Below, piece after piece: positions 5,634 through 39,718 of a stretch of 40,545 bases of DNA. Position 1 is the stretch's first letter. Each line of letters opens with the position of its first letter. The DNA is taken from positions 1 through 40,545 of IMG/VR virus record IMGVR_UViG_3300033067_000687; one strand, 5' to 3'. Origin of the DNA: a virus. Lineage: Duplodnaviria; Caudoviricetes. The notes below the pieces were generated by a model. That model ran no database searches, was not told the origin of the DNA, and saw only the letters and a program-made list of their open reading frames with translations. Both the position numbers and the translations under genes were made by a program.

Positions 5634-8600
5634 GCGCGCCCCCGCCGGAGAGCCAGTTCGCGGCCCTCGATCCACAGATCCTCGACCACTCGCCCGCCGA
5701 TGATGACCGGGACGTGCATGACATCCTTCGCCTGCTGGCTCTTCCAGCCGGCCGGCAGCGGCACGATGGCCTCATCCTGCCCGGCCTCACCCGCTCGCAG
5801 GAGGGTGCCGCCGCGCCGGGCGCGCACGATGCCGCCCTCGGCCATCTCAGGGATGCCGGGGATGCCGTCGCCGCCCAGGATCGCCTGGATGTACTTCAGC
5901 GATTCCTCGTACGGGTCGCCGCGCTCCCAATGCCCCACGGCCCCGCCGCCGCCGTTGTACGCCACCAGCGCCTTGACCAGATCGTCGTACTCGCCCATGT
6001 GGCTGTTCATCAGCCGGGCGGCGTAGTCGAGCGAGTCGAACGGGTCGTAGACGTTGACGTTAGGGTGGTAGCGGCTCAGGATCTGCGCGATGCCCCGCGC
6101 CTCGTCTTCGCCGCGACTCGCGTACCGCCCCTGACCCCAGATCACGTCAGAGTTCCAGTTGGCCGACTCGTGGCGCATCTGCCGCATGAAGACCTCCGGG
6201 AAGGGGAAGCCGTTGCGGCGCGCGGCGTCCCGGGCAAGCTTGGCCCAATCGGAATCGTCCACGTCCACGCCCGAGAACAGGCCGATGAACTCCTTCATCG
6301 TTGACTGCGCGTCGGGGAAGATTTTCTTCACGCCGTTCAGGAAGCCGAGCATCGTGTTCTCACCGAGCGCAAACATGACGTGCGACGGCGAGCGGTGCTC
6401 CAGGCGGTCGCGGATGAACTTCGGAATCCAGTCGATGATCTTCTGGAACCAGTTCGCAGCCGTGCCCTCTTCCGACTCGTTGCCCCACACCGTCTTCAAG
6501 CCGTCCCAGAAGGCGTCGATCAGGCCGCGCCCCGACTCGAACAGCCACTTGACCTCGAACGGGTTGTTGGCGTCCAGGCCGAGCGCCCCGAAGATCGCCT
6601 TCTTGAAGTTGTTGAACCAGGGCGAGAGCGTCTCGGCCCAGAAACTGTTCATGCCCCCGAGCACGCCGTCGAGCACGCCCCGGCCAATGTTCTTCAGGTC
6701 TTCGACCCACGCCAGCCCGCCCTCGCCGTTCCAGCCGATGGCCCCGAAGATCAGGTTCTTCAGCCCCTGGAACCACTTTTCGAGGCCGTCCGTCGAGCCG
6801 CCCTTCCAGAACTCCTCCAGGCCCACCTTCAGCCCTTCGAGCACCGCCTTGCCGATGCTCTTCAGGTCTTCGAGCCATTCGAGCGCCCCGGACGCGCCGG
6901 TCCCGATCCAGCCGATGGCCTTGAACACGAGGTTCTTGAAGCCGCCGAACCAGCCCTCCAGCGTGTCGGTCCAGTATTTCGCCATGCCGTCCCGCAGCCC
7001 TTCGAGCAGGGCGGTGCCGATCTCCGCGAAGACGGTGGACGGCGACTGGATGCCGAACAGTTTCTTGACCGTCTTGATGATCCAGTCGGTCGCCTGCCCG
7101 AGATACGGCTCCAGCCACTTCCACGCGGCCTGGATGCCGTCCCAGATGCCCGAGAGCAGCGCGCCGCCGATCTCGACCGCGCCCTTCAGGATGGCCGGCA
7201 CGGCGGTCGTCGCCATCCAGATCGAGACGGCCAGCAGTAGCTTCGCGAGTTCGGCCAGCACCAGCGGGATACGCGGGCCGACCCAATCCACAATGGCCCG
7301 TCCCCACTCGCCCAACTTGGTCACGAGCGCCGGCAGGCCGTCGCGGACGACCCAATTCAGGACCGCCAGCAGCAGCCGGCCGAGTGCGTTCAGCATCGGG
7401 AAAATCTTCGGAGCGACCCACTCCACGAACGCCAGCCCCCACCGGCCGAGCGCGTCCAACAGGTCGCCGGCCTTCGCGCCGAGCCATTCGATGGTCTTCG
7501 CCAGTAGCGACCCTAGCTTCGACAGGAGGTTCGGGATCTCGGGGATCACCCACTCCACGAACGCCGTGCCCCATTCGAGCAACTTGACGGCAAGCTTGGC
7601 GCTGGCCTCCCCGACCCAATCGAGCACCTGGACAGCGAGCGTCCCCAGGTTGTCCAGCAACGGCCCGCCGGCCGCGAGCACGCTCTCTCCCAGGAAGCCG
7701 AGCACGGAGAGCCAACCGCCCGTCTCGAAGGCGCTCTTCAGGCGATTGGTGAAGTATTCGATGGCCGCGCCCAACTTGCCGCCGAGCACGTCCTGAAGTT
7801 TGTTGACCAGCGAGACGCCGAGCGTCGCGCCGATGCCCGCGCCGATGGGGCCGAAGGCCGCGCCGCCGAGCACCGCGCCGATGGAGCCGGCGACGATCTG
7901 GAACCAGTTCTTGTCGATCCAGTTCTTGACGCCGCTCGACATCTTCTCCGCGAGCATCTTGCCCTGGTCTTCGGCCCACTTCTCCAGCGATGCGTCGGTC
8001 TTCCGCTGGTACGACTGCGGGCCGGTCGGCGCGGCGGGACCGCCGGCCCCGGCAGCGGCCTTCGCAGCCGCCTTCGCCGCGGCTTCCTGCTCCTTGATGG
8101 CCCGGACGTTCGCCTCGATCTCCGACTTGACGCCCTGGTACTGGCTCTTCAGTTGGTTCAGGTCTTCCTTCTGGCGGGCGAGCGAGTCCAACTGCGCCAG
8201 CATCGGGGCCAGCGTCGCGGTCTGCTCATCCTTGATGGCCTTGACCTGGGCGAGCACCTCGGCCTTCATGGCGTCGGCCCCCATGTCGTTGAGCGCCTGC
8301 TGGATGGTGTGCTCTTCCTTGCGGACCGCGAGCAACTCGCGCTCTTTGGCGATCTCCGCGAGCTTGTTCTTGTCCACCATCCCGTCGAGGTCGCGCTGAA
8401 GCCCGAGTTCCTTCTCGCGCAGTTCGAGGTTCTTCAGCTTGTGCTTGTTGTCTTCGGCGCGCTGCTTGTCGTCGTCCAGGGCGATCTGGCGACGCAGGCG
8501 CAGTTCCTTCAACTGCCCTTCGAGGCCGTCCGTGTCCTTGTGATCCTTCTTGGCCTGCTTGATCCGATCCTGAAGTTCCTGCTCCTGGCGCGCGAACTGC

Positions 8601-21216: not shown

Positions 21217-23256
21217 TCAGTCCACGATGGGGATGAAGGCGCGGCGGCACCTGGGGTGGGCCAGGAGGTTGTTCGCCGCATGCGCCAGCGTCCAGGTCTT
21301 GCCGTTGGTCTTCTTGCACTCGTCGTCGTAGTCGCCGTCGTGAACCTTCACCTTCGAGACGACGCCCGACTTGGCGTAGGAGAGCAGTTGGCCGGCGTTG
21401 TAGGCGTTGCCGCTCTCGGTGAGCGCGATGGTCATGGCGCGGTTGCGGTACGTCTGCTCAACGTGCTCGCGGACCGCCTTCGCCAACTGGTCGGGGGACG
21501 CGCCGCCCTCGCGGCCGAGCATCTTGCCGATCAGCGAGCGGATGTCGGCCTTCGTGGTGTCGGAGATGCCGACGATCCGGGAGGCCAGGGTGTCGAGCAC
21601 GTCCTGAACCTCGGGCATCGGCCGGCTGAAGGTCGCCTTGACGCCCAGGAACGGGGCCAGATCGGCACCGGCGGCGTTGAGCGCCTGTAGCGTTGCGTCG
21701 TCCAGGGCGTCCTTCACGTCGTCGTGGTCGAGCACGTCCAGCCAGACGGTGATGTCGTCTTCTGTCGCCTTGTACCGGAATGGTTCCGGGCCGAAGTGCA
21801 GGACAACCGCGTCCGTCTCCTTCTGCTGGATCGCGCCGACGACCCGATCACCCATCCGCTTGAACGACAGGAACAGTTGCTCGGTCAGGGCGTCTTCGAT
21901 CCCCTTCAGTGAGGCGTCGCGCTTGCGGACCAGCGTCTCAGCCGAGAACGGGCGGCGGCGGGCCTTCGCGCCCTTCGGAGCGTCCTCGGGGTCTTCCTCG
22001 TCGTCCGCTCCCTCGGGATCAGCCTTGCCCGGCTTCAGCGCCTCGGGGATCTCTTCGACCACCACGTCGGCGCGCGGATCAGTGTCCTTCGGGAAGTTCA
22101 TCCCGACGCGAGCCTCGTTCAGCGAGATGATGCGGTCACGGCGGGCGGCTCCCAGGCGAGTCCAGAGCGCATCCACGTCCTCGGAGAGCGAGCGGACCTC
22201 GCTGGTGTCGAAGGCGGCGTAGTAGCTGTCGTCGTCGGTGAAGTCGGCGTACAGCAGGCCGAGCGTGAAGGCGTCAGCGACCAGATCCCACCGGGGGATC
22301 AGCGTCGTCTCGGTCCAGAACTGCTTGAGCGTGGTCGCATTCGAGTAGGTCGCGGAGTCCAGGCCCGCGCCGAGTCCGGCCAGGATGGCGGGCACTTCGT
22401 ACGCGGCCGAGATCCGCGTCTCGGGCACCCGGCGCAGGGCGGCGTCTGCGAGTTCCGAGAGGTTCAGGCCGATCCGATTGACGGCCATCTCGCTGCCCTC
22501 GGCAATCATGATGTCGCCGCGATTGTCGCCGCCGAAGCGGGTGCGGAACTGCTGCTGGATGCGCTGGAAGGCGTCTTCCCGGAGGTTGCCCTTGACGGTG
22601 ATGACCGTTCGGGGCGTGGCGTCGTTCTTCAGCAGCGCGTGGACGTAGCGCCCGGCCTCGTTGTCGGTGTCAACCTCGCGGGCGATGGCGACGATGGGGC
22701 TGAGGCCGACCTGGGGCTGGCGCGGGTCCGGTGCCCACCGCAGGACGATCACGTCCTCGGGCTTGATGGTCGGGTCGAGACGGAAGGTGCCGGTCTGGTC
22801 GAGCGTCTTGTAGCCGACGATCCAGTTCCGGGAGTCCAGCACCGGCTGGATGACGCCGGGATGGAGCGGCCACAGTTCGACAGGCGTCCGGCCGTCCACG
22901 GCCGAGCGGCGCTTCAGCACGTAGCACGTCCCGCCGATGGCCTTCCAGGTGTAGACGAACGACATGAACTCTTTGCGGCCCATGTGCGGGTTCGGTCGGT
23001 TCAGCAGCCGCGTGAACGGATGGTTCGGGACGATCTCGGAGCCGTTGGCGGTGCGCTTCTTGACGACCATCGGCGGCTCGGGGAAGGCCAGCGCGCCGGC
23101 GCGGATGCACGAGAAGACGGCGCTGTTCTTGCGGTAGCCCTCGCTGACGAGGGTGTCCCACGCCTGATCCATGACGGGGGCGTCCTGCCACGGCATCGTG
23201 AAGCGAGCGACCGCCGATTTGGTGCTGGCGAGCATCCTGCCGAGAGCGTCGAGCAT
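21217..23256 (-). CDS. HK97-type portal fused to a MuF (Mu gpF-like) minor head domain
   Basis: Portal motifs AVFSCI, HPFTRLLNRPNP, ELWPLHP, GLSPI, SLNEAR; then RAMTIALTE...DDECK..NG...HPRCRR. Confidence 0.88.
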   Translation of the reverse strand: MLDALGRMLASTKSAVARFTMPWQDAPVMDQAWDTLVSEGYRKNSAVFSCIRAGALAFPEPPMVVKKRTANGSEIVPNHPFTRLLNRPNPHMGRKEFMSFVYTWKAIGGTCYVLKRRSAVDGRTPVELWPLHPGVIQPVLDSRNWIVGYKTLDQTGTFRLDPTIKPEDVIVLRWAPDPRQPQVGLSPIVAIAREVDTDNEAGRYVHALLKNDATPRTVITVKGNLREDAFQRIQQQFRTRFGGDNRGDIMIAEGSEMAVNRIGLNLSELADAALRRVPETRISAAYEVPAILAGLGAGLDSATYSNATTLKQFWTETTLIPRWDLVADAFTLGLLYADFTDDDSYYAAFDTSEVRSLSEDVDALWTRLGAARRDRIISLNEARVGMNFPKDTDPRADVVVEEIPEALKPGKADPEGADDEEDPEDAPKGAKARRRPFSAETLVRKRDASLKGIEDALTEQLFLSFKRMGDRVVGAIQQKETDAVVLHFGPEPFRYKATEDDITVWLDVLDHDDVKDALDDATLQALNAAGADLAPFLGVKATFSRPMPEVQDVLDTLASRIVGISDTTKADIRSLIGKMLGREGGASPDQLAKAVREHVEQTYRNRAMTIALTESGNAYNAGQLLSYAKSGVVSKVKVHDGDYDDECKKTNGKTWTLAHAANNLLAHPRCRRAFIPIVD

Positions 23257-23314: not shown

Positions 23315-24793
23315 CTATGCCGACAGTGAGCGGACGCGAACCTCGGGCGTGCTGCGGTAGGCCCACCATGCGATAGCGGTCGCCATCACGCAGTCGTCGT
23401 GCATGCCTTCGGGGGCGCTGTAGCGGAGCATCCCGCTGCCGGCCCGCTCCGACTCGAACGCCTGGAGTTCGCCCAGGTAGATCGGGTCGTTGATCGTCTC
23501 GATCTCCCGCCGCTCGTAGGCCAGTTGCAACGCTTCGATGGCCTCGACTTTGCTGGAGGCGGTCGTCATGAACGGCTCGATGGGCAGGCCGTCGCGGTAC
23601 TCGCCCTCCCGCCAGACCTGATCGGCGCGTGGATCGACCTCGAAAGCCAGCACCCGGCCGTGTCGAACCTCCCGCAATGGGTACGGCAGGCGGTCCGGAT
23701 CGACCACGGTCAGCGTGTCCAAGTGGCCGTCGCGTCGGAGCATGAACGTCTGACTGCCACGGACGGCGATCCGGACGTAGGCCACGTCGGGCTGCTCGCG
23801 CTTCTCGGGCCGCATCAGGCTCTCGATGATCGGCACGCCGATGCTGTTCGCCTCGGGGGCGACGACCTCTGGCTCGAACAGGTCGTAGAGCGCCCGCAGC
23901 CGGCCGGTCTGGACGGCGTAGTCGATCATGTTGAACCGCTCGACGCGGACCACGCGGCGGCAGCAGGCGTCGAGCACGACGATCACGGTGAAGTCGTTCA
24001 GCTTGCCCCAATCGACGCCGAAGACGTACCGATGGCCCGGCACCGCCTCTTCCTGGTACTCGGCCACGGCCTGCTCCGCGACGAAGCGGAAGACGCCGTT
24101 GGTGTCGTCCAAGAATTGCGCCATGTGCTCTTGGAGGAAGATCAGTTCGGGCATCGACGCGCGGGCGTCGTCAATCTCGGACGGCGGGATGAACGGATTG
24201 GCCGTGGTCGGGAAGTGGAACGTCTTCCAGAGCGGCTGCACCGCGTCCAGGCCGCGCTGGTAGACGTGCCAGAACCAGTTCCGGCCCTTCGGCGTGCTGA
24301 TGAAGAGCGCCTTGCCCTGGCGGTCAGCGAGCGCCGGCCGGATGACCTCGGTCCAGGCCCGCTCTTTGATGAACGCGGCCTCGTCAAAGACCACGAAGTC
24401 CAGACCCTCGCCGCGTAGGTTGTCGGGGTCTTTGGCCGACTTGCAGCGGACGAAGCCGCCGTTCGGGAACTCCACCGAGAAGTCGCCGTCGCGGATGTCT
24501 GCGCCCGGCACCTTCTGGGCGACGGCCCGGACCATCCTCCAGCCGATCACGGCGACGCCGTAGGTCGGGGCGACCCACCAGCACTTCTTGCCGGCCGCTG
24601 CGAGCAGGATGCAGAGCAGCGCGCCAAGCTTCGTCTTGCCGAAGCGGCGACCGGCTGCGACAACGACGAAGCGGACCGTCGTCTCCAGCAGCGTCTTCAG
24701 GATCAGCGTCTGGCCCGGATGGGTGCGCGGCGGCTTCAGGACGATCCGCTCGGCCCCTTCCGGGACCGGGACGCTACTCCGGCGGGACGGCAT
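23315..24793 (-). CDS. terL: Terminase large subunit
   Basis: Walker A AGRRFGKT, LRGEGLDFVVFDEAA, ISTPKGRNWF, GVDWG, HDDCVMA; start codon uncertain. Confidence 0.95.
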   Translation of the reverse strand: MPSRRSSVPVPEGAERIVLKPPRTHPGQTLILKTLLETTVRFVVVAAGRRFGKTKLGALLCILLAAAGKKCWWVAPTYGVAVIGWRMVRAVAQKVPGADIRDGDFSVEFPNGGFVRCKSAKDPDNLRGEGLDFVVFDEAAFIKERAWTEVIRPALADRQGKALFISTPKGRNWFWHVYQRGLDAVQPLWKTFHFPTTANPFIPPSEIDDARASMPELIFLQEHMAQFLDDTNGVFRFVAEQAVAEYQEEAVPGHRYVFGVDWGKLNDFTVIVVLDACCRRVVRVERFNMIDYAVQTGRLRALYDLFEPEVVAPEANSIGVPIIESLMRPEKREQPDVAYVRIAVRGSQTFMLRRDGHLDTLTVVDPDRLPYPLREVRHGRVLAFEVDPRADQVWREGEYRDGLPIEPFMTTASSKVEAIEALQLAYERREIETINDPIYLGELQAFESERAGSGMLRYSAPEGMHDDCVMATAIAWWAYRSTPEVRVRSLSA

Positions 24794-25286
24794 CGGCCGG
24801 CACGTCTGGCTGCGGCGAGTGCATCTCCCAGGCGTCGGTGCCGTCGCCCCATTCAAGCTGAACGGTGACGGTCTTCTCCCGGTCCGCGACGCTGACCTCG
24901 GCCTTGCCAGTTGGGGAGGCGTACAGCCCGAGCAGGCGGGCGCGCATGCCCATCATGCCGGTCACGCGGTCGAACGCCATGTAGTCGCCGGCGACGGCCT
25001 TCGGCCAGAGCTTGGCGAACAGTTCGTCCAGGCGTTCGAGTTCGAGCACGCGGGCCTGCTCGACGGTTTCGGCGCGGTCGGTCCGCTGCCGTTCGAGCGC
25101 CGCGATCACGTCGGCGTGGGCGTTGCGCTCGCTGTAGCCCTTGCTGACGACGCCCCGCTGTCGGAGGGCTTCAGCGATGCGGCGGTAGGAGCCGCCCTGC
25201 TTGCGGAGGGTCAGCGCGGCGAACTCGCGGTCCTCGCGGCGCAGGCGCGCGGGCGCGGTGGGGTTGTTCTGGAGGTTGTCGGCCAT
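24774..25286 (-). CDS. terS: Probable terminase small subunit (HTH)
   Basis: ALTLRKQGGSYRRIAEAL...ELERLDEL...RARLLGL; directly upstream of and overlapping terL. Confidence 0.75.
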   Translation of the reverse strand: MADNLQNNPTAPARLRREDREFAALTLRKQGGSYRRIAEALRQRGVVSKGYSERNAHADVIAALERQRTDRAETVEQARVLELERLDELFAKLWPKAVAGDYMAFDRVTGMMGMRARLLGLYASPTGKAEVSVADREKTVTVQLEWGDGTDAWEMHSPQPDVPADAVPPE

Positions 25287-25365: not shown

Positions 25366-25494
25366 TTAGCTACCGCTGGTCCGACCTTCAGCCGGAGCGG
25401 CAGCGCGGCGGCCGGTGACGCGGGCCACGGCCCGGCCGGCGGCACCCAGAAGATTCCGAGCACCAGCGCCAATGCGACCAAACAGGTTCCGCAC
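25366..25494 (-). CDS. 42-aa Arg/Ala/Gly-rich peptide absent from the ORF track
   Basis: AAGGAGGT RBS then GTG; MRNLFGRIGAGARNLLGAAGRAVARVTGRRAAAPAEGRTSGS. Confidence 0.7.
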   Translation of the reverse strand: MRNLFGRIGAGARNLLGAAGRAVARVTGRRAAAPAEGRTSGS

Positions 25495-25511
25495 GATGAG
25501 TTACCTCCTTC

Positions 25512-25940
25512 CTACGAGAGATCCCGGAAGCGACGGTCGATGCGAAGCAACGGCTCGGGGGGCACCGCTGCTTCGAGTTGGATGCCGAGTCGTTCTGCCA
25601 GAAGCATACCGTCAAGGTACTTGTCGCCGTGCTCCATTAGGTCGGTCTTCTGGAGGAACTCGTCCTTCTGCGCCCGCGACTGGAAGCAGACCGCGACCCA
25701 ATACTCCGAGTCGGTGGTGTCGGTGAAGCGGTCTTCCTCGCGAGCCGAGCGAGCCTTGAAGCCGGCCAAGACCTCCGACAACTCTTCCTTCGCGAGCGCC
25801 TCGGCCTCGTCAATCGTGGTCGGCTGGCCGTCGTCGTCGCCCCCGCCGTCGAGGGTGAGCGACTGGTCGTCCCCGAGCGCGAAGTCGTCCCCGCCGAGCG
25901 AGAACTCCAGATCCTGGCTGCTGGTGCGGCGTGGTGGCAC
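25512..25940 (-). CDS. Acidic protein, likely partner of the PP-loop enzyme
   Basis: AGGAGG RBS; Asp/Glu-rich N-terminus; DSEYWVAVCFQSRAQKDEFL...GDKYLDG. Confidence 0.7.
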   Translation of the reverse strand: MPPRRTSSQDLEFSLGGDDFALGDDQSLTLDGGGDDDGQPTTIDEAEALAKEELSEVLAGFKARSAREEDRFTDTTDSEYWVAVCFQSRAQKDEFLQKTDLMEHGDKYLDGMLLAERLGIQLEAAVPPEPLLRIDRRFRDLS

Positions 25941-25948
25941 GGTGCCTC

Positions 25949-26164
25949 CTACAGTCGGCCGGTCAGGCCGAAGATGATGACGGCGAGGGCAGCGCCGACG
26001 ACGATGCCGGCTCCGACCGAGACGCAGATCAGCGAGAAGACCCAGGTGACGACTTGGTAGGCGAGCATCGTCTCCTGCATCGACGTGTCCGGACTGTGAT
26101 CCTCGGGCGCGGAAGGGACCGGCCAGATGGCCGGCATCTCCTGGGCGTCAGGCGTAGAAGTCAC
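25949..26164 (-). CDS. Small membrane protein
   Basis: Long hydrophobic C-terminal segment; start uncertain. Confidence 0.5.
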   Translation of the reverse strand: MTSTPDAQEMPAIWPVPSAPEDHSPDTSMQETMLAYQVVTWVFSLICVSVGAGIVVGAALAVIIFGLTGRL

Positions 26165-26855
26165 GGCGGCGCTCCATCCGGAACAGTTCGAGGTCCGCGA
26201 GCGGGAACCACTCCAGCACCCGCTGGAAATCGCGGGGCGACTGCTCGCGGAGCGGGGCCATGAACCGATAGTCGAGGCCGTCGAAGGTCCGTCCGAACCA
26301 CTTGTAATCGACGGGAAGCTTGACGCCAGACTGCTTGATCTCGGAGATCAACTGCTCTTTGCGCCAGTCGAAGACCGGGAAGAAGGTCCGCTTGCCCTCG
26401 TTGAGCGGGCCGTGGCGCTTGATCGCGGTCCACCGCTGCGGACTGTCAACGGCGCGGACGCCGACCGCGCAGAACGTCTGCTGCGGAAGGCCGAAGATGT
26501 GCTTACTGACGACGAAGGCGTCCGGGTAGTCGTACTTCAGGAGGTTGGCCTGCTCGATGATGGCGCAATGCTCGGGCGGCTGGAAGATCAGCGCGTTCAG
26601 CCAGCGGTAGAGCGAGGGGTGCGGCAGGCGCAGGATGCGGGTGTCGAAGACCCGCTCGTAGTAGCGGAGCGACCGCTCGATGAACTCCAGGTCCGGCACG
26701 AGGTACATGTAGACGGGGAAGACCTCGATACCGTGCTTCCGCAACTGGAGCCAGCAGGCGATGGAGTCCTTGCCCGTCGAGAACGAGAGCAGCGCCTTGC
26801 CACCGCCCTGCTCTTTGACGTAGCGGCAGAGTTCGTCGGACGACTCGAACTGCAC
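26148..26855 (-). CDS. PP-loop adenine-nucleotide alpha-hydrolase (PAPS-reductase/DndC-like fold)
   Basis: LLSFSTGKDS PP-loop, VGVRAVDSPQR, FPVFDW; AAAGGA RBS. Confidence 0.8.
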   Translation of the reverse strand: MQFESSDELCRYVKEQGGGKALLSFSTGKDSIACWLQLRKHGIEVFPVYMYLVPDLEFIERSLRYYERVFDTRILRLPHPSLYRWLNALIFQPPEHCAIIEQANLLKYDYPDAFVVSKHIFGLPQQTFCAVGVRAVDSPQRWTAIKRHGPLNEGKRTFFPVFDWRKEQLISEIKQSGVKLPVDYKWFGRTFDGLDYRFMAPLREQSPRDFQRVLEWFPLADLELFRMERRRDFYA

Positions 26856-26906
26856 GTATCGGCATCCTTTCTCGGTCGGTCTGGGTGCTCCAGACGGTCA
26901 AATGTG

Positions 26907-26915
26907 AGCATAGCA
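26907..26915 (-). promoter_or_regulatory. Extended -10 (TGcTATGCT) for the packaging/late operon
   Basis: About 50 bp upstream of the PP-loop gene; similar TGn-10 elements precede portal and protease. Confidence 0.45.
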
Positions 26916-26930
26916 CGGCCCGGCGGCCGG

Positions 26931-27165
26931 CTTCCTGGGGCCATCCTGGTAGCCTCCTGGGGCCATCCTGGGGCCAGTACGGTGATTCTTGCCTCCTGGG
27001 GCCATTGTGGGGCTTCCTGGGGCCATTGTGGCATCTCTAGGGATGATACGGCTTCCGGGGCTTCCTGGGGCCATTGTGGGGCCAGAATCGGCCATCCTGG
27101 GGCCATTGTGACCAGGATGGGGCTACCGGGCCATTCTGGGGCTTCCTGGGGCCATTCCGGGCCAG
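26931..27165. repeat. Left repeat array: 8 x CCTGGGGCCA, including 3 exact GGGGCTTCCTGGGGCCATT
   Basis: Copies start at 26934, 26956, 26967, 26995, 27016, 27064, 27096, 27145. Confidence 0.9.
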
Positions 27166-27181
27166 TCTGCCATCTCTAGGG

Positions 27182-27199
27182 CTGTTACATATGCAACAG
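27182..27199. promoter_or_regulatory. Imperfect palindrome CTGTTACATATGCAACAG upstream of the -35
   Basis: 8 of 9 positions pair; AT-rich UP-element position. Confidence 0.5.
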
Positions 27200-27209
27200 T
27201 CAAAATGGG

Positions 27210-27238
27210 TTGACAACCATCTCTAGGGATGGTAGAGT
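27210..27238 (+). promoter_or_regulatory. Sigma70 promoter with a palindromic operator filling the spacer
   Basis: TTGACA (27210-15), 17 bp, TAGAGT (27233-38) with extended TG; ACCATCTCTAGGGATGGT at 27216-33; related copies at 27032 and 27171. Confidence 0.8.
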
Positions 27239-27288
27239 CAATCTTGCCAGGAGGCACTAGCCTCTTGAGCCAGCCAGGAGATACCACG

Positions 27289-28053
27289 GTGACAATCAAG
27301 GCTTCGGATCTGTCCTTTGGGGTTGAGATTGAATGCCTCATGCCAGCGGGCCGGCAGTTTGCAGCCGGTGGCTACCATCGGGGCCAGCAGATCCCGTCGC
27401 TCGGGGAGTGGTCGGCGGCCGGCTGGAATGCTCAGGCAGATTCGAGCGTGTCGGGCGGCGTTGAGGTTGTCTCTCCCATCCTGACCGGGGAAGAGGGGCT
27501 GTACCAGACATGGGCGGTCGTGGAGTACCTCGCTTCCATCGGCACCCAGGTTGACCGGCGGTGCGGCCTGCATGTGCATGTGGACGCACGGTCGCTCACG
27601 GAAGCCCAGGTGCGGACCATCCAACGGGAGTTTCAGAAGGTCGAGCGAGCGTTCTACGCGCTGAACGCTGAGAAGGCCGGGGAGCGGTGGGGCAGCATCT
27701 ACTGCATGCCGTACTCGCGGGTGGGGGCCGCTCAGGCAGACGGCACCCGGTACATGAGCCTCAACATTCAGAACTGGCTCCGGGGGACGCGCTCAAAGAA
27801 GACTCTGGAGTTCCGGCTCTTCGCTGGCACGATGGACCCTCGCAAGGTCATGACGGCGGTCCTGATGTGTGTCTCTCTGGTGGCGGCAGTTGCCAACGGC
27901 GAGACGTTCGCAGAGAAGCCCGATGCGGTGGGCCAGACCAAAGTCCTCATCAAGCAGGCTATCCAGAAGCATCGCATCGTTGAGGGCCACGGTGTCTCGG
28001 ATGTGCTGCGGTACATGCTAGAGGAAGTGGGCCGGGCCACCATACCGGCCTAA
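27289..28053 (+). CDS. Putative amidoligase (COOH-NH2 ligase, Amidoligase_2-type)
   Basis: FGVEIE, DSSV..GVEVVSPIL, CGLHVHV, RYMSLN, TLEFR; AGGAG RBS before GTG at 27289. Confidence 0.88.
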   Translation: MTIKASDLSFGVEIECLMPAGRQFAAGGYHRGQQIPSLGEWSAAGWNAQADSSVSGGVEVVSPILTGEEGLYQTWAVVEYLASIGTQVDRRCGLHVHVDARSLTEAQVRTIQREFQKVERAFYALNAEKAGERWGSIYCMPYSRVGAAQADGTRYMSLNIQNWLRGTRSKKTLEFRLFAGTMDPRKVMTAVLMCVSLVAAVANGETFAEKPDAVGQTKVLIKQAIQKHRIVEGHGVSDVLRYMLEEVGRATIPA

Positions 28054-28445
28054 CGGCCCGGCCCCATCCCTACCAGGAAGCCCCCGGAAGCCGGGGGCTT
28101 CCTACATGACCGGCCCATGCGGGCCGGCACATGTGGCCCGGACGGAAGCGGCCGGGCCACATGTGCCGGTAGCAGAATCGGCCCAGGAAGCCCCAGGAAG
28201 CCCCCGGATCGGCCGGGTGCTATGGGGATAGTACCGGCCCCCATTCCGGGCCTCCTGACGGCCATCTGGCCCCATTCTGCGGCATTTTATGTTGTCAGTC
28301 TGGCCCCATGTGATGCCAGAACGGTCACAGGAAGCCCCAAACCCGGCCGGCTGGCCCCAGGATCGGCCCGGCCGGAATCGGCCCCCGGAAGCCCAGGAAT
28401 CAAGCCCCAGGATCGGCCGGCAACGGCCCGGCCTACCAGACCAGA
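28054..28445. repeat. Right repeat and hairpin array, inverted relative to the left array
   Basis: CAGGAAGCCCC x4 (28074, 28184, 28194, 28328) and TGGCCCCAGG (28352) are reverse complements of left units; 13-bp hairpin 28075-28103; 18-bp hairpin 28124-28169. Confidence 0.85.
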
Positions 28446-28461
28446 CCAGGAGGGTAGAGAG

Positions 28462-29172
28462 ATGACAACAGGCACACAAGAGCTAATCCAGAAGGCGCTG
28501 TCGCTCGGCGGGCACAAGCGGAAGGCCGGCAAGCCGGTCCAGAAGAAGCGCCGGATCGTCTGCCACGAGGGGACGGGCACCGGCATTGTCAAGGCCGTAG
28601 TCGAGCGGCTCGGCGGCGTGCTGCGGGTGGTCAATACTCTGGAAGAGGCGCAGACGCTCTCGTTCGACGGGCTGCTGCTCCTGGGTGGGGCCGACATCAA
28701 CCCGGCGTGGTACGGCGAGGCCATCACCCATGCCACCCGGATCGACCAGAAGCGCGACATCATCGAGTGGTGCCTGATCCGGCGGGCCATCACGGCGGGC
28801 GTCCCGGCGATGGGCATTTGCCGGGGCAACCAGATGCTCGCGGCGGCGCACGGCGGGAGTCTGTACCAGGATCTGCTGGCAGACGGCGTGACGACGCGCA
28901 ATCACAGCGGCCGGGGCCACCGGCTGGTGGACGTGATGCGCCCACTGGCCCGCCACATGCCGGGCACCCGACAGGTCAACTCGTACCACCATCAGGCCGT
29001 CAAGACGGTCCCGCACGGCTTCGACGTGGCGGCAGAGTCCGAAGACGGGGTGATCGAGGCGATCTGGCGACCGGGCTACCTGGGCGTCCAGTGGCACCCG
29101 GAGTTGCTGATCGGCCAGGGCGATTCGGATTGGGTGACGCTGTTCAAGTGGTTCATGGCCGGGCTAGACTAA
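28462..29172 (+). CDS. Class I glutamine amidotransferase / peptidase C26 (PuuD-like)
   Basis: DGLLLLGGADINP, MGICRGNQ (catalytic Cys), VNSYHHQAV, GVQWHPE; GGAGG RBS before ATG at 28462. Confidence 0.92.
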   Translation: MTTGTQELIQKALSLGGHKRKAGKPVQKKRRIVCHEGTGTGIVKAVVERLGGVLRVVNTLEEAQTLSFDGLLLLGGADINPAWYGEAITHATRIDQKRDIIEWCLIRRAITAGVPAMGICRGNQMLAAAHGGSLYQDLLADGVTTRNHSGRGHRLVDVMRPLARHMPGTRQVNSYHHQAVKTVPHGFDVAAESEDGVIEAIWRPGYLGVQWHPELLIGQGDSDWVTLFKWFMAGLD

Positions 29173-29180
29173 GAGCGCGA

Positions 29181-29208
29181 GGGATGGCAGACGGGCGTCT
29201 GCCATCCC
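29181..29208. promoter_or_regulatory. Perfect 12-bp hairpin before the HTH gene, sharing the operator half-site
   Basis: GGGATGGCAGAC-GGGC-GTCTGCCATCCC; GTCTGCCATC also at 27165. Confidence 0.5.
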
Positions 29209-29225
29209 GTCACTGGAGGCCCGAC

Positions 29226-29486
29226 ATGACAGCGCCAGCCACGAAGAGGAAGCCGCGAAGAAAAGCGGCACCCCGGACGTACTCAACCCAAGAGGTCGCG
29301 GACATGGTGAACCGTGCCCGCGTGACCGTCCGTCAGCTTGCACAGAAGTACGAAGACGACCCGAAGCCCATCGGCCAGAAGATCGGCCGCGACTGGCGCT
29401 TCACCGACGAGGACGTAGAGCGTATCAAGGTGCTTCAGCCACCCGACGAGGCTCGTCTGCGGCGGCTCCCGGAAGTCGCGCCCTGA
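29226..29486 (+). CDS. MerR/excisionase-like HTH DNA-binding protein
   Basis: YSTQEVADMVNRARVTVRQLA...KIGRDWRFTDEDV; GGAGG RBS. Confidence 0.8.
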   Translation: MTAPATKRKPRRKAAPRTYSTQEVADMVNRARVTVRQLAQKYEDDPKPIGQKIGRDWRFTDEDVERIKVLQPPDEARLRRLPEVAP

Positions 29487-35849: not shown

Positions 35850-36113
35850 TCAGTTCCCCTCGGGCACCGCCGTCGCCAGCGACCGCAGCCGCCGGTAGCA
35901 GGGGCGGCAGGACGGGTTGACCTCGGCGTCGTTCATGTCGGTCGCGCCGAGCGGGTACGCGATCAGGAACAGCGTCGCGGGAGCCTCGCAACCGATCCCG
36001 TCCGGGCCGTTCGGCAGGCCGGTGCAGCGCACGTCGATACCCTGCGGCACCGGGACGGCCTGGGCTTCGATCAGGGCGTCGTCCCGCATCGTCGCCATCG
36101 TCTTGATCGTCAT
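35850..36113 (-). CDS. Hypothetical Cys-containing protein
   Basis: ATG overlaps the methyltransferase stop. Confidence 0.45.
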   Translation of the reverse strand: MTIKTMATMRDDALIEAQAVPVPQGIDVRCTGLPNGPDGIGCEAPATLFLIAYPLGATDMNDAEVNPSCRPCYRRLRSLATAVPEGN

Positions 36114-36880
36114 GCGACCCCCGGCAGCGCAGCCTGGAGCACGACGGCCTCCAGCATCGGCCAGTAGCCCGGCTCGCGCTCGATCAGCCACGCCTCGCGT
36201 CCGTAGGCGCGGGCGACCTTGCCAGTCGTGCCGGTGCCGGCCCACGGGTCGAGCACCACGTCGCCGGGGCTACTGAACAGGCCGATCAGGCGGGCGACCA
36301 GCGCCTCGGGGAAGGCCAGCGGCTGGCCCGCCCCCGAGCGCCGTCCGGGCGGTAGCACCCACACGTCTTTGGTCGCTTCGAGGTAGTCGGCCACTCCCCA
36401 CTCGTTGGACATGCCGGCGACGCTGTACGTCTCCTTCGAGGCCAGCAGCACCATCTCGTGGACCGGCCGGGCGTACGGGTTGGTCGGCGCTCCGAACGCC
36501 GTCGTGGAGGCCGTGGGCGTCACGCCGTCCGTGGCCTTGACCCACACAATCGGCTCGCGCAGCAGCCAGCCCATCGGCAGGAGCAACTGCGCCGCGATCA
36601 CCGACGCCAGCGGGTAGGCCCGGTGGTGCGCCGTGCGGATCGTCTGCGGCACGTTCAGCGCCAGGACGCCGCCCGTCTTCAGCACGATCTGAAGGTGCGC
36701 CAGGGTGCGGCCGAGCATGTGGAGATACTCGGGTAGCGGCAGCGAGTCGCCAGCGCCGCCGTCGCGGTAGTCGTAGCCGACGTTGTAGGGCGGGCTGGTG
36801 ACGACCAACTGGACGCCGCCGGCCTCGATATCGGACAGGGCGGCGAGGTTGTCGCCCCGATAGAGCCTGCTCTCGCTCAT
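36110..36880 (-). CDS. Orphan DNA methyltransferase, beta class (N4-C / N6-A)
   Basis: VTSPPY catalytic motif before VLDPWAGTGTT SAM motif; AFPEALV. Confidence 0.9.
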   Translation of the reverse strand: MSESRLYRGDNLAALSDIEAGGVQLVVTSPPYNVGYDYRDGGAGDSLPLPEYLHMLGRTLAHLQIVLKTGGVLALNVPQTIRTAHHRAYPLASVIAAQLLLPMGWLLREPIVWVKATDGVTPTASTTAFGAPTNPYARPVHEMVLLASKETYSVAGMSNEWGVADYLEATKDVWVLPPGRRSGAGQPLAFPEALVARLIGLFSSPGDVVLDPWAGTGTTGKVARAYGREAWLIEREPGYWPMLEAVVLQAALPGVA

Positions 36881-37374
36881 GCGAATCCCTTCATCAACAT
36901 GAATCTCTGGCCGGCGCGACCGCACTCGTCATCGCACCAGACGTTGTGTTTGCTGACCGGCCCGCCCCGTTTGCCGACGCCGGCCTGCAACTGCGCCTTC
37001 GTCGGGTGGCCGTCAAGCCGCACGTAGTCGAGCGCCCTGAGCCGCCCGAGCACCATCGCCATCCGTCGCCGCCACTCCAGCGGGATGCCGGTCAGGCGGG
37101 CGTCGTCGCGGAAGCGTCGGATCGTCACCAGCGAGTCGGTGCAGACCTTCCCGGACCAGCCGTACGGCAGCGCCTCCAGGCCGGAGAGCAGCGCGTAGAA
37201 CTCGGTCTGGTTGTTCGTGACCGGCCCGCCGACCTCGGACGGCAGGATCACGCCGCTGGCGTGCCAGATGCGGTAGTCGTCAGCGTCCACATGGCACGTC
37301 GCCCAGGTGCCCGCGATGGGCGACGGGTTGACGCGCAGCACCCCGCCGTCCGCATAGATCGCCGCCGCGCTCAC
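36877..37374 (-). CDS. RNase H-like protein
   Basis: IYADGG...TNNQTEFYA...VCTDS...GHP...NVWCD; GTG at 37374. Confidence 0.8.
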   Translation of the reverse strand: MSAAAIYADGGVLRVNPSPIAGTWATCHVDADDYRIWHASGVILPSEVGGPVTNNQTEFYALLSGLEALPYGWSGKVCTDSLVTIRRFRDDARLTGIPLEWRRRMAMVLGRLRALDYVRLDGHPTKAQLQAGVGKRGGPVSKHNVWCDDECGRAGQRFMLMKGFA

Positions 37375-37853
37375 GGCGCGACCGCCGGCATGTCGCCGCA
37401 GTAGGCGCACCAGCCGCGCCCACCGTCGCCCTCGTGGCCGGGGCAGACCTGACGGAAGCGGTGCTCCCACAGGTCGCCCTCGGTGGCGGTCAGCAGGCCC
37501 ACCGCCACGAACGCGCCGACCGCGCCGTCCGTCATGTCGAGCACGGCCGGCTCGATGCCGTTCCGCATCTCTTCGTGCATCTGGCGCAGGAAGGTGTCGG
37601 CCTTTGCCCGCATGATCGCGGCCGACTCCGAAGCCGGCCTGCCCTCGGTGCCCGAGTCGCGCTTCAGCATCCCGAGCGTGATGTAGCTGAAGGCGTCCAC
37701 CAGTTCGGCCAGCCCGTATTCGAGCGGGTCGATCTTCGAGTCGAGGTTCAAGAGTTCGCCGTACTCCTGCAACCCCTTCTGCTCCTGCTGTTCGAGCAGC
37801 ACCCGGAACATGGTCCGGACGTGCAGCCCGATGGGTTCCGATCCTCCGAGCAT
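37371..37853 (-). CDS. Hypothetical protein, N-terminus resembles all-alpha NTP pyrophosphatases
   Basis: KGLQEYG..L...AELVDAFSYI. Confidence 0.4.
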   Translation of the reverse strand: MLGGSEPIGLHVRTMFRVLLEQQEQKGLQEYGELLNLDSKIDPLEYGLAELVDAFSYITLGMLKRDSGTEGRPASESAAIMRAKADTFLRQMHEEMRNGIEPAVLDMTDGAVGAFVAVGLLTATEGDLWEHRFRQVCPGHEGDGGRGWCAYCGDMPAVAP

Positions 37854-38167
37854 CAAGCCACCACGCTTTCCGCAACCTGGGCGACGCACCAGACCACGGC
37901 CATTCGGCCGCTCATGGTCCGGCGGCGCTGGCCGCTGTCGATCACCGAGCGGCGCAGCACCAACTCGCGGCGGCGGGGCCGCTCGGTGTTGGCCGGCATC
38001 GCCAGGATCGCCTGGATCTCTTCGTCGGTCGCGCCGCGCTCGCCGCGCTTCACCAGCAGGGCGAGCACCTGGGCGCGCAGCGTGTTCGGGTCGCGGACGG
38101 CCCGCGCCGCCGCCTCGGATGTGTCGGAGCCGGCCACGAACGGCGGGACGCCGTTGTACTCGGTCAT
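37853..38167 (-). CDS. Phage winged-HTH protein (starts MTEYNG)
   Basis: DTSEAAA...GATDEEI...RPRRRELV...DSG.RR..SGR.AVVW. Confidence 0.7.
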   Translation of the reverse strand: MTEYNGVPPFVAGSDTSEAAARAVRDPNTLRAQVLALLVKRGERGATDEEIQAILAMPANTERPRRRELVLRRSVIDSGQRRRTMSGRMAVVWCVAQVAESVVA

Positions 38168-38748
38168 AGCCGGGGCATCCGCTCTTCGCGCAGCGCGCCG
38201 CAGTAGTAGCCGGCGCTCGGCACGGTGCAGATGAACTTGAACTCGCCCTTGCCCTTCGTGGCCTCCGGCTCCAACTTGGCTCGCAGGCGGGCGATGTTCA
38301 CTCGCAGGAGATGGAACTCGCACTCGTACTCCTGGCCCCACACCAGCGTCAGCAGCCGGGAATGGGGCACCACGAGGCCGTTGGCCCCGATAACCACCAT
38401 CAAGATGCGCCACTCGACCGGCGTCAAGTGGACCTTCTTGCCCTTGCGCCGGACCTCGAAGTAGCCCGGCGAGATGACCCAATCGCCCACGCGGATCACC
38501 TCGGAAGGGCCAGCGACGCCCTCGACCAGCGTCTGGAGGGTTCGCGCGTCGATGACCGCGAGGCCGGCGGCTTCGAGCCGCTGGACGGCCTGACGGGTGA
38601 CAGCGGCCGTGGCGCGGCGGCGGGCGGCGGCGAGCAGATAGGGGTCGGGCGCGTCGCGGTCGTCGGCCCGCCAGCGGGACATGCTGGTGCGCGGCTCTGC
38701 GAGATTTGCTACCACGATGTTCTCTCCAGAGGTTGTTTCGGATGCCAC
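38164..38748 (-). CDS. OmpR/PhoB-type DNA-binding domain without a receiver domain
   Basis: VHLTPVEWRIL...LLTLVWG.EY...LRVNIARLRAKLE...ICTVPSAGY, KdpE-like. Confidence 0.85.
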   Translation of the reverse strand: MASETTSGENIVVANLAEPRTSMSRWRADDRDAPDPYLLAAARRRATAAVTRQAVQRLEAAGLAVIDARTLQTLVEGVAGPSEVIRVGDWVISPGYFEVRRKGKKVHLTPVEWRILMVVIGANGLVVPHSRLLTLVWGQEYECEFHLLRVNIARLRAKLEPEATKGKGEFKFICTVPSAGYYCGALREERMPRL

Positions 38749-38797
38749 AGGCGGTCAGCGCGGGCCACAAAGAACGGCCGACGCTGACCGCCGACCG

Positions 38798-39718
38798 TTA
38801 CGCCTGGACAGCGGCCGGCAGGATCACCCGCTGGCCGTCGTACGGCGTCCCCTCGATCTTGATGGGGTAGAGCGTGGTCCGCTCGTACGGCCGCGCCTTG
38901 AACGTCCGACCCTCGAACGCCCCGTTCCAGCAGGCCGCGACCACCCGCGCCACGATGGCCGGCGCGCGGCGAGCCAGCGGCGTCGTCAGCATGTACTCGC
39001 GGAGCACCAACTCCGGCGACTCAGCCCGCAGTCCGTCAGCTTCGGCCGTGGTGCGCCAGAACGACTCGGCCAGTTCCGGCTGGTGACGGAACGTGATGAG
39101 TGCGACCGCGAAGCACGCCCCGGTGTACAGCCGTTTCGAGTGTCGCCCCTTGCCGATGACCCTGGACGCCTCGCGAACCTCGGGTGCCCACTCGAAGATC
39201 AGCGCCTTGCGGGCGTCGGGGTGGACGCCGCGCGTGCCGCGATCCATCTTGGCGAAGCCGGTGCCGATCAGCGAGACGGCCGCGCTGGCGTTCTTCACGT
39301 CGAGCGCCGTCAGGCCGATCCGCTCGAACGCCCCTTCGGCGTGCAGCACGTCCCGCAGGGTGCGGCCGATGCCCCGGTCGAGCCGTCCGTACTCGGCGTC
39401 GAGTTCGCCCTCCGACTCGCAGGAGGCTTCGATCACGACCACCGTCGCCGGCATGCCTGACAGCACGATTGCGCTCAGGCGGTGCTGGCCGTCGATCAGG
39501 TAGGTTCGCTTGCCGACCGTCCGGACCTGGATGGCCGTCGTCTCGAAGGTGCCGCGCCGAATCGTCGCGGCCAGCATCTCGACGTGCCCCTCCCGCAACG
39601 GCCGCTGTCGCGGGTACTTCCAATCGGTGAGCCACCGCGCCGCCATCTCGGGCGTCACGGTCACGACGCGCGTGTCCAGCAGCCCGCTCGGCGCGGGCCA
39701 GATTCCTTGTGCCACCAC
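38798..39718 (-). CDS. ParB/Srx-like DGQHR-motif protein
   Basis: VTPEMAARWL...QRPL...LIDGQHRLSAI...LDRG..RT. Confidence 0.75.
   Translation of the reverse strand: MVAQGIWPAPSGLLDTRVVTVTPEMAARWLTDWKYPRQRPLREGHVEMLAATIRRGTFETTAIQVRTVGKRTYLIDGQHRLSAIVLSGMPATVVVIEASCESEGELDAEYGRLDRGIGRTLRDVLHAEGAFERIGLTALDVKNASAAVSLIGTGFAKMDRGTRGVHPDARKALIFEWAPEVREASRVIGKGRHSKRLYTGACFAVALITFRHQPELAESFWRTTAEADGLRAESPELVLREYMLTTPLARRAPAIVARVVAACWNGAFEGRTFKARPYERTTLYPIKIEGTPYDGQRVILPAAVQA

Follow-up and report, generated by a model that had tools for sequence, protein, structure and literature searches.

The virus record IMGVR_UViG_3300033067_000687 (Duplodnaviria; Caudoviricetes), a DNA of 40,545 nucleotides (nt) which as a whole is called the window in the following, carries directly beside its terminase genes a cassette which consists of a PP-loop enzyme, a small partner protein and an Arg-rich peptide. 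The cassette is real and widespread, and apparently it is undescribed: neither the cassette nor its peptide nor the word-free DNA tracts which accompany it are described in the literature searched, in which subscription papers are scarce, so that an earlier prediction may exist. We propose, with a probability of roughly 0.4, that in phages of many bacterial phyla ribosomally made, Arg-rich peptides are attached covalently along a single strand of the virion DNA, via a terminal Ser, Thr or Tyr and at sites activated by adenylation, and that the zone around the early promoters from which the target word is missing, together with residue 143 of the enzyme, reveals this word. In our view it is probable that the cassette places a bulky mark on virion DNA at a specific word. 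The whole peptide-transfer mechanism, i.e., adenylation of DNA followed by joining of the peptide via its terminal hydroxyl, is a tentative proposal to which we give slightly less than even odds.

Word-free tracts accompany the cassette

Upstream of the enzyme gene in the window are two tracts (Table 1) which together hold 57 CG dinucleotides. All 57 are followed by G; the word CGH is absent. Base shuffles of the two tracts lead one to expect on average 33 and 39 copies of CGH, with minima of 17 and 22 in 2000 shuffles. Thus the CGH-free DNA which the original prediction, made from the letters of the window, placed next to the enzyme is real. The longest other CGH gap in the 40.5 kb is 73 nt. 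The opposite strand of the tracts retains the word at a reduced density of 24-31 per kb, compared to about 100 per kb on both strands elsewhere. Tract 1 extends from the start codon of the enzyme across a divergent promoter into an amidoligase gene and comprises about 10 degenerate repeats of 10-11 nt; its promoter is the sole sigma-70 match in 4.4 kb scanned. Tract 2 covers the end of the amidoligase gene, intergenic repeats which are inverted relative to those of tract 1, and the start of a GATase gene. In the middle of the amidoligase gene CGH is halved, and 14 of the 18 Arg codons are CGG.

The tracts track the cassette across phages. We examined 66 dereplicated cassette loci with at least 3 kb of upstream sequence and 83 cassette-free control loci (42 terL, 37 amidoligase and 4 DUF932 relatives), accepting xCG-free gaps with a score of at least 15. 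A tract is present on the terminase strand in 30/66 cassette loci compared to 0/83 controls on either strand (Fisher 2e-13); on the other strand 5 of the 66 cassette loci have an xCG-free gap. Restriction to a GC content of at least 58% leaves 23/45 versus 0/43. All 30 tracts are located within -3.5 to +1.5 kb of the enzyme. A comparison within one family of gut phages which share the same early gene points in the same direction: the density of CGT upstream, equivalent to ACG on the terminase strand, is 2.35 per 800 nt in the 20 members which have the cassette and 11.3 in the 16 which lack it, the members being related and their upstream DNA in part non-homologous; elsewhere CGT amounts to about 19 per 800 nt, and the reverse word ACG is unchanged. 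The co-occurrence across homologous phages, which had been named as a check, is therefore present. Together with the comparison within the gut-phage family and an enzyme residue linked to the word (see below) it upholds the earlier designation of the enzyme as best candidate writer of the avoided word.

Cultured phages provide further examples. Cafasso and VanLee infect Gordonia rubripertincta. In Cafasso a stretch of 595 nt where divergent TTGACA-type promoters cluster contains a single CG; in VanLee 340 nt of the early-promoter region contain zero CG. Pm86 lacks ACY over 1251 nt and BigBern1 lacks ACG over 922 nt (score 11). No CG-type tract was found in 12-13 kb pieces of Clawz, a phage of the same Gordonia host, DBQu4n, Sicarius2 and Laroye, none of which is among the phages with a match to the enzyme. 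In some of the loci lacking an xCG tract other words are avoided, i.e., ACY in Pm86, MGC in locus L253 and KAC in L146 (L numbers denote individual loci). The genes in the tracts encode ArdC-N, DUF932, DUF2786, DUF2958 and amidoligase proteins; they are typical early or anti-defence genes.

Several other stretches were noted. A 20-nt repeat unit of tract 2 (28175-28194) is identical to one in L149 (7068-7087), where it sits in an RCG-free tract of a Hydrogenophaga prophage and encodes a Pro/Ala-rich sliding-clamp tail. As a shared cis-element the repeat was discarded: its 13-mer is repeated only in L149 among 349 loci, and a 19-mer gave 0 matches in viral contigs. A high GC content in the absence of DCG may be enough to produce it. 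A control locus contains a CGS-free stretch of 544 nt (L227, 581-1125), and a cassette locus in which no peptide was found an HTT-free stretch of 434 nt (L139, about 6795-7229). In Arthrobacter phage Sicarius2 (L423, 2306-5515) one strand is free of TTG/TTD over 3.2 kb, and a pair of ParB-like and acetyltransferase genes lies downstream of this stretch; codon bias and the footprint of another modification are candidate readings.

Polarity of the avoidance and choice of the word

Genes which point leftward lack the word on their template strand (L012, L028 and the amidoligase of the window), whereas genes which point rightward lack it on their coding strand (L011, L007, DUF932 in L122, and L156). 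The latter four rule out a model in which only the template strand matters. In L022 enzyme and partner are inverted, and the avoidance follows the strand of the terminase, not that of the enzyme gene, which rules out a polarity set by the enzyme gene. In L014 the amidoligase is inverted and both GCG and CGC are depleted, as expected if selection restarted after the inversion. This terminase-strand avoidance, like the hydroxyl-ending peptide tail described below, goes beyond the original prediction.

The avoided word differs between clades (DCG, RCG, GCG, ACG, ACY, MGC), and the same xCG word family recurs across hosts of several phyla. A sister clade of the enzyme, which has a ParB-like partner (RAP44), avoids GGA and TCC near the amidoligase; gaps together with small basic open reading frames (ORFs) are present in 4 of 20 sister-clade loci. 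A GGA-free stretch of 3823 nt surrounds the amidoligase in L322/L323 (6152-9975), where the fetched locus has no enzyme gene; a sister cassette may be situated further away.

Among the columns of the enzyme alignment, column 143, two residues after the invariant R141, sorts the words best. V, I or L is present in 7/10 ACG loci (three phyla), A, S or T in 14/14 GCG/RCG loci and M in 13/15 DCG loci; the window enzyme has T. In held-out loci with V, I or L the ACG gap exceeds the CGT gap in 12/12 cases. This co-variation is suggestive of a link between enzyme and word, not proof of it.

The cassette and its peptide across loci

From 424 viral and 125 genomic loci we took the best 80 each, and later matches were added. 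Dereplication at 85% enzyme identity resulted in 93 clusters, 82 of which belong to the core family; clades were taken from a quick version of the tree. The partner adjoins the enzyme in 82/82 core-family loci and is fused to it in 8 of 150 representative enzymes. Its conserved parts are a long helix and a DSEYW...GDKYLDG core, the N-terminus is variable. The description of the partner as very acidic is correct for the window, yet not as a defining trait of the family: among 106 homologues the net charge is -10 or lower in 26 and zero or higher in 27. A fold search with the partner retrieved generic long-helix matches only (Z at most 5.1), and neither Pfam nor the PHROG ParB family matched. 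In most loci the terminase follows downstream on the same strand. Hence enzyme, partner and peptide are a conserved cassette beside the terminase, as the original prediction had it for the window. A coupling to packaging is plausible. Named hosts of cassette loci are Actinomycetota, Pseudomonadota, Bacillota, Verrucomicrobiota and others. A co-fold of enzyme, ATP, partner and peptide scored 0.01 compared to a mark of 0.32 and was given no weight in either direction.

Exceptions to the position upstream of the terminase are L121, L131 and L149, where a head protease comes next. These and L147 are Burkholderiales elements with an 870-890-aa (amino acid) protein in the place of the terminase, which in L121, L131 and L149 matches head proteases. 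In the latter three the peptide is relocated upstream, and RCG-free tracts are kept in L131 and L149. In L003 and L022, which have enzyme and partner in inverted orientation, the peptide remains with the terminase.

Of the 78 loci whose sequence extends far enough, 67 have a small basic ORF behind the partner; the calls were made without any C-terminal filter, and one or two are probably spurious. The last residue is S in 33, T in 19, Y in 3, R in 8, A in 2 and G in 2 peptides, i.e., 55/67 end with Ser, Thr or Tyr. Position -3 is Ser in 46/67 and position -5 is Arg in 41/67, the usual tail being R-[ST]-S-G-[ST]. Conservation is limited to these last five residues; the body drifts. The strict tail [RK][STAQV][SA][GSN][ST]-stop was found in 37/80 loci, with about 0.006 expected per locus; elsewhere it matched 13 times in 1864 strand-kb, and 7 of these 13 resemble relocated peptides. 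Two paralogues with unlike bodies and the same tail are present in L001, L017, L080, L094 and L156. In 8 of the 67 peptides a C-terminal extension ends in Arg. GenBank gives no annotation for the peptide genes of Pm86 (L001, 5101-5349, two copies) and VanLee (L419, after 14244). In Lactobacillus phage LR1 (L005, 4621-5046), which belongs to an intermediate clade, a 141-aa basic protein with a Gly/Ser/Lys tail follows the enzyme and is possibly a long form of the peptide.

The enzyme

The enzyme matches phrog_2302, labelled 3'-phosphoadenosine-5'-phosphosulfate (PAPS) reductase, with E 7e-27. A viral scan with the single protein found nothing; the scan with an alignment yielded the loci. Among 1102 candidates 940 are homologues, and the family comprises 483 clusters at 50% identity with E of 1e-30 or lower. 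Matches are present in 31 of 50,697 GenBank phage records. Pfam has no match for the enzyme, nor for the partner, the peptide or the membrane ORF listed in Table 1. The ESM Atlas returned solely hypothetical or PAPS_reduct-labelled viral clusters, and the best hit of the enzyme profile in a sequence search of the PDB is GMP synthase at E 0.055.

The AlphaFold2 model (predicted local distance difference test score 97) displays a PP-loop α/β fold in a single domain. Its best structural match is the PAPS domain of FAD synthase (Z 12.8, root mean square deviation 3.2, 157 residues aligned), followed by PAPS and adenosine-5'-phosphosulfate (APS) reductases (Z 12.0-12.2), CysD (Z 11.7) and TilS (Z 11.5). 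Foldseek ranks TtuA and GMP synthase at the top, and the TtuA-TtuB carrier complex is among its top matches. Conservation across 270 enzymes amounts to 87-100% for the PP-loop residues S26, G28, K29 and D30, the arginine loop G132-x-R134-x-x-D137, R141 and a GRxFDG motif. The fold therefore argues for ATP-dependent adenylation and for no particular substrate.

PAPS and APS reductases have a C-terminal catalytic Cys in an ECG[LI]H motif, and APS reductases bind their cluster via CC..CxxC. These motifs are present in 0/270 enzymes, and no Cys column exceeds 35%. The original prediction that the enzyme lacks the reductase Cys motifs and does not serve sulfate assimilation is thus extended to the family. 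Because conserved Cys and reductase motifs are both absent, sulfate reduction and iron-sulfur-dependent sulfur transfer are unlikely, and as judged from these sequences the same applies to sulfur insertion as the role of the enzyme.

A proposed mechanism and its rivals

We suggest the following sequence of events. The enzyme-partner pair would recognize the word, in the window 5'-DCG-3' on the terminase strand, as the co-variation of residue 143 suggests, and would use ATP to adenylate the DNA at this position. By analogy to SspD/TdpC-type enzymes of the same fold the activated group may be a backbone phosphate. This is our preference because enzymes of the closest folds move AMP onto oxyanions or off them and because SspD marks a 3-mer in the backbone of one strand. 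The terminal hydroxyl of the peptide would then displace AMP, generating a peptide-DNA link; Ser, Thr and Tyr are the residues which form phospho-links to DNA. Presumably only a fraction of the sites would be tagged, because 3845 sites, all occupied by peptides of about 4 kDa, would carry about 16 MDa, compared to 26 MDa for the DNA itself. The mark would shield the DNA from host nucleases. As a bulky basic tag it may also hinder host RNA polymerase, and for this reason the promoters and genes read first would purge the word. The polarity argues for action on DNA of fixed orientation, either while the motor packages it or while it replicates as a rolling circle.

A number of observations weigh against this proposal. 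At the threshold used, 36/66 cassette loci have no xCG tract, and the complete phage CA1NRNZ has no clear word (best DCG score 6.6). A single actinobacterial clade supplies 14 of the 30 positives; the p-values therefore presuppose more independence than the loci have. In Cafasso, VanLee and the GGA/TCC clade the depletion extends to both strands. An eraser gene common to the tracts was looked for among the tract genes and not found. Residue 143 was picked out of about 230 columns, the held-out contrast of ACG and GCG is weak (p 0.04), Ala occurs with both ACG and RCG, and Thr with both DCG and RCG. A non-hydroxyl residue is last in 12/67 peptides. The fold leaves the chemistry open, considering the score of TilS and the Foldseek ranks of TtuA and GMP synthase. 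Finally, cassette, peptide tail, fold, absence of conserved Cys, tracts and co-occurrence are directly observed; the link of peptide to DNA is what we infer.

It is quite possible, though we would not bet on it, that the same word receives a small mark, such as AMP, a phosphate-linked group or a TilS-like modified cytosine, and that the peptide acts as binding cofactor, activator or donor which is not left on the DNA. This accounts for all tract evidence and avoids the problem of added mass; most words (DCG, RCG, ACG, GCG, ACY, TCC) have C in the middle, and TilS is nearly tied in fold. Yet a plain DNA binder has no need of a fixed S/T/Y tail at the stop codon while its body drifts, and the tandem paralogues retain this tail on unlike bodies. 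Should the C-terminus of the peptide be the substrate in another sense, its carboxylate might be adenylated by the enzyme, as in ubiquitin- or Pup-like systems or in the maturation of ribosomally synthesized and post-translationally modified peptides (RiPPs), and be joined to a protein (TerS, capsid, host defence) or matured into a product, the tracts having another cause. A variable body with a conserved C-terminus of small residues, the established adenylation of carboxylates by PP-loop enzymes and the TtuA-TtuB match speak for such a scheme. We consider it unlikely because tracts which track the cassette within a family, and a word which tracks an enzyme residue, are left unexplained by it; further, owing to the Arg-ending extensions the position of the free carboxylate is not the same in all peptides.

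In a further reading the tracts would have arisen in response to a host defence or to a different phage enzyme, e.g., the N6/N4 methyltransferase of the window, with the cassette just travelling along or acting as counter-defence for the remainder of the genome. Early and anti-defence genes are indeed what the tracts contain, and the window does have the methyltransferase gene (36110-36925). This explanation is decidedly unlikely in view of a common xCG word family in hosts of several phyla and of cassette-free relatives which have the same early genes and no tracts; a methyltransferase homologue is present in the fetched flanks of only 1/30 positive loci, the window's own copy lying outside the excerpt. 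Least probable is sulfur chemistry, be it sulfate assimilation, phosphorothioation, which the original prediction brought up, or tRNA thiolation. Database labels point to PAPS reductase, an SspD profile matches 2/33 family members weakly (best E 1e-4; none for the window protein), and SspD, according to PMC12914056, also marks a single-stranded 3-mer. Against this stand the lack of reductase motifs and of any conserved Cys, the lack of a desulfurase regularly nearby (a crude motif matched only 2 frames in 93 representative loci) and the absence of tRNA genes from the window. Phosphorothioation as the chemistry is thus not supported.

Setting of the cassette in the window

The record is that of a linear virus with 67% GC and an estimated completeness of 52%. 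Its minus strand carries all replication, packaging and structural genes. A short divergent operon (amidoligase, GATase, helix-turn-helix [HTH] regulator; 27229-29486) is situated directly upstream of the cassette in opposite direction. The positions of the ORFs confirm that enzyme, membrane ORF, partner, peptide and putative terS are arranged on the minus strand as originally listed, with the 42-aa basic peptide ahead of terS. Of these, the membrane ORF is to be removed from the cassette, as 344 loci searched contain 0 homologues. The putative terS is assigned only by its position and by a weak HTH-type match (phrog_645). Enzyme, partner and peptide have clear ribosome-binding sites, that of the peptide being AAGGAGGT. 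Downstream of the peptide the order is putative terS, terL and portal, the latter fused to a MuF-like minor head domain (21217-23256).

Table 1. Features of the cassette and its surroundings in the window.
Feature	Position	Strand	Remarks
terL ORF	23315..24856	-	Pfam Terminase_6N, E 2e-11; its strand is the DCG-free strand of the tracts
Putative terS	24774..25286	-	position and weak HTH-type match (phrog_645) only
Arg-rich basic peptide, candidate co-substrate	25366..25494	-	42 aa; 8 K/R, 1 D/E; ends R-T-S-G-S-stop
Partner subunit	25512..25940	-	142 aa; 33 D/E vs 16 K/R
Membrane ORF, one hydrophobic helix	25949..26164	-	71 aa; inserted locally, outside the conserved cassette
PP-loop adenylyltransferase-fold enzyme (PAPS-reductase/FAD-synthase type, no conserved Cys)	26148..26855	-	235 aa; SFSTGKDS = residues 24-31
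Tract 1, no CGH on + (no DCG on terminase strand)	26856..27394		539 nt
Sigma-70-type promoter match TTGACA-17-TAGAGT, TG extension	27210..27238	+	overlapped by operator-like palindrome
Amidoligase_2 gene, divergent, likely early	27229..28053	+	database match
Tract 2, no CGH on +	27979..28495		517 nt
Peptidase_C26/GATase gene of divergent operon	28462..29172	+	database match
HTH_17 regulator, last gene of divergent operon	29208..29486	+	database match

Three copies of an 11-nt operator-like word are located at 27032-27042, 27171-27181 and 27218-27234. The third forms an imperfect palindrome across the spacer of the sigma-70 promoter, which may be a site for the HTH protein of the divergent operon. 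The methyltransferase gene is accompanied by a ParB-like gene (phrog_5931) in the replication arm (36110-39718), apart from the cassette. A search for Rfam matches at E of 0.1 or lower in the window gave none.

Significance and comparison with known systems

If the proposal is correct, a ribosomal peptide serves as co-substrate of DNA modification, for which no precedent was found in the literature searched. It would constitute a new anti-nuclease strategy and provide an enzyme for sequence-specific coupling of peptides to DNA. Should the mark be only AMP or a small group, a new variant of phage DNA modification would result. Even then 483 clusters of phage genes, filed by PHROGs as auxiliary metabolic 'PAPS reductases', would be re-annotated. 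Further, tracts and enzyme residue together offer a prediction of the target word of a modification from sequence.

The enzyme shares with FAD synthase, PAPS/APS reductase and CysD the PP-loop, the G-x-R-x-x-D arginine loop and a P-x-x-D-W motif (Z 11.7-12.8). It differs by a sequence identity of 10-14%, the lack of the catalytic C-terminal Cys and a non-metabolic context. The tRNA-directed PP-loop enzymes TilS, TtcA/TtuA and MnmA have extra tRNA-binding domains or CxxC clusters, whereas the enzyme described here is a single 235-aa domain without conserved Cys. The ubiquitin-like carriers TtuB and ThiS and the carrier Pup are, like the peptide, small proteins with a conserved C-terminal tail encoded beside an adenylating enzyme. 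The peptide, however, is Arg-rich and linked to a DNA word, and it has neither a β-grasp fold nor a Gly-Gly or GGE tail; instead of the invariant tail of ubiquitin and Pup it has R-[STA]-S-G-[ST], with the extensions to Arg. A RiPP cluster would have a conserved leader, a variable core and a peptidase or transporter. Here the last five residues are conserved and terS and terL follow.

The phosphorothioate writers SspD, DndC, BrxP and TdpC also have a PP-loop fold of the PAPS-reductase type and a short word on one strand. An et al. in 2025 reportedly, going by the title of their paper, describe an adenylated intermediate of TdpC. For these writers an ATP pyrophosphatase step has been proposed to activate the DNA, and SspABCD marks CCA, a short non-palindromic word, on one strand (PMC12914056, PMC10853773, PMC12839542). 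They are linked to a cysteine desulfurase, which host IscS can substitute, and to a P-loop NTPase; TerL itself is a P-loop ATPase. In contrast, the cassette is phage-encoded beside the terminase, has an obligate small partner, a ribosomal peptide and a word-free zone, and lacks a conserved Cys or iron-sulfur motif and, as far as the crude motif shows, a desulfurase regularly nearby.

Similar in genomic position are the ParB-terminase (ParB-Tls) phage loci, which in PMC4738411 are predicted to modify DNA during packaging. As in the cassette, a candidate DNA modifier is located directly upstream of the terminase in phages and prophages; a ParB-like partner (RAP44) is shared by the sister clade only. 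According to the same source the ParB-Tls loci have methyltransferases, whereas the cassette clade combines a PP-loop enzyme with a short helical partner and a peptide and has no ParB.

The covalent link which we propose has its counterpart elsewhere, in that the same three residues which end the peptides would provide the phospho-ester. Terminal proteins, relaxases and topoisomerases bond to DNA through Ser, Thr or Tyr. In those systems one protein is attached at a DNA end by priming or transesterification; the cassette, by comparison, would equip many internal sites following activation by ATP.

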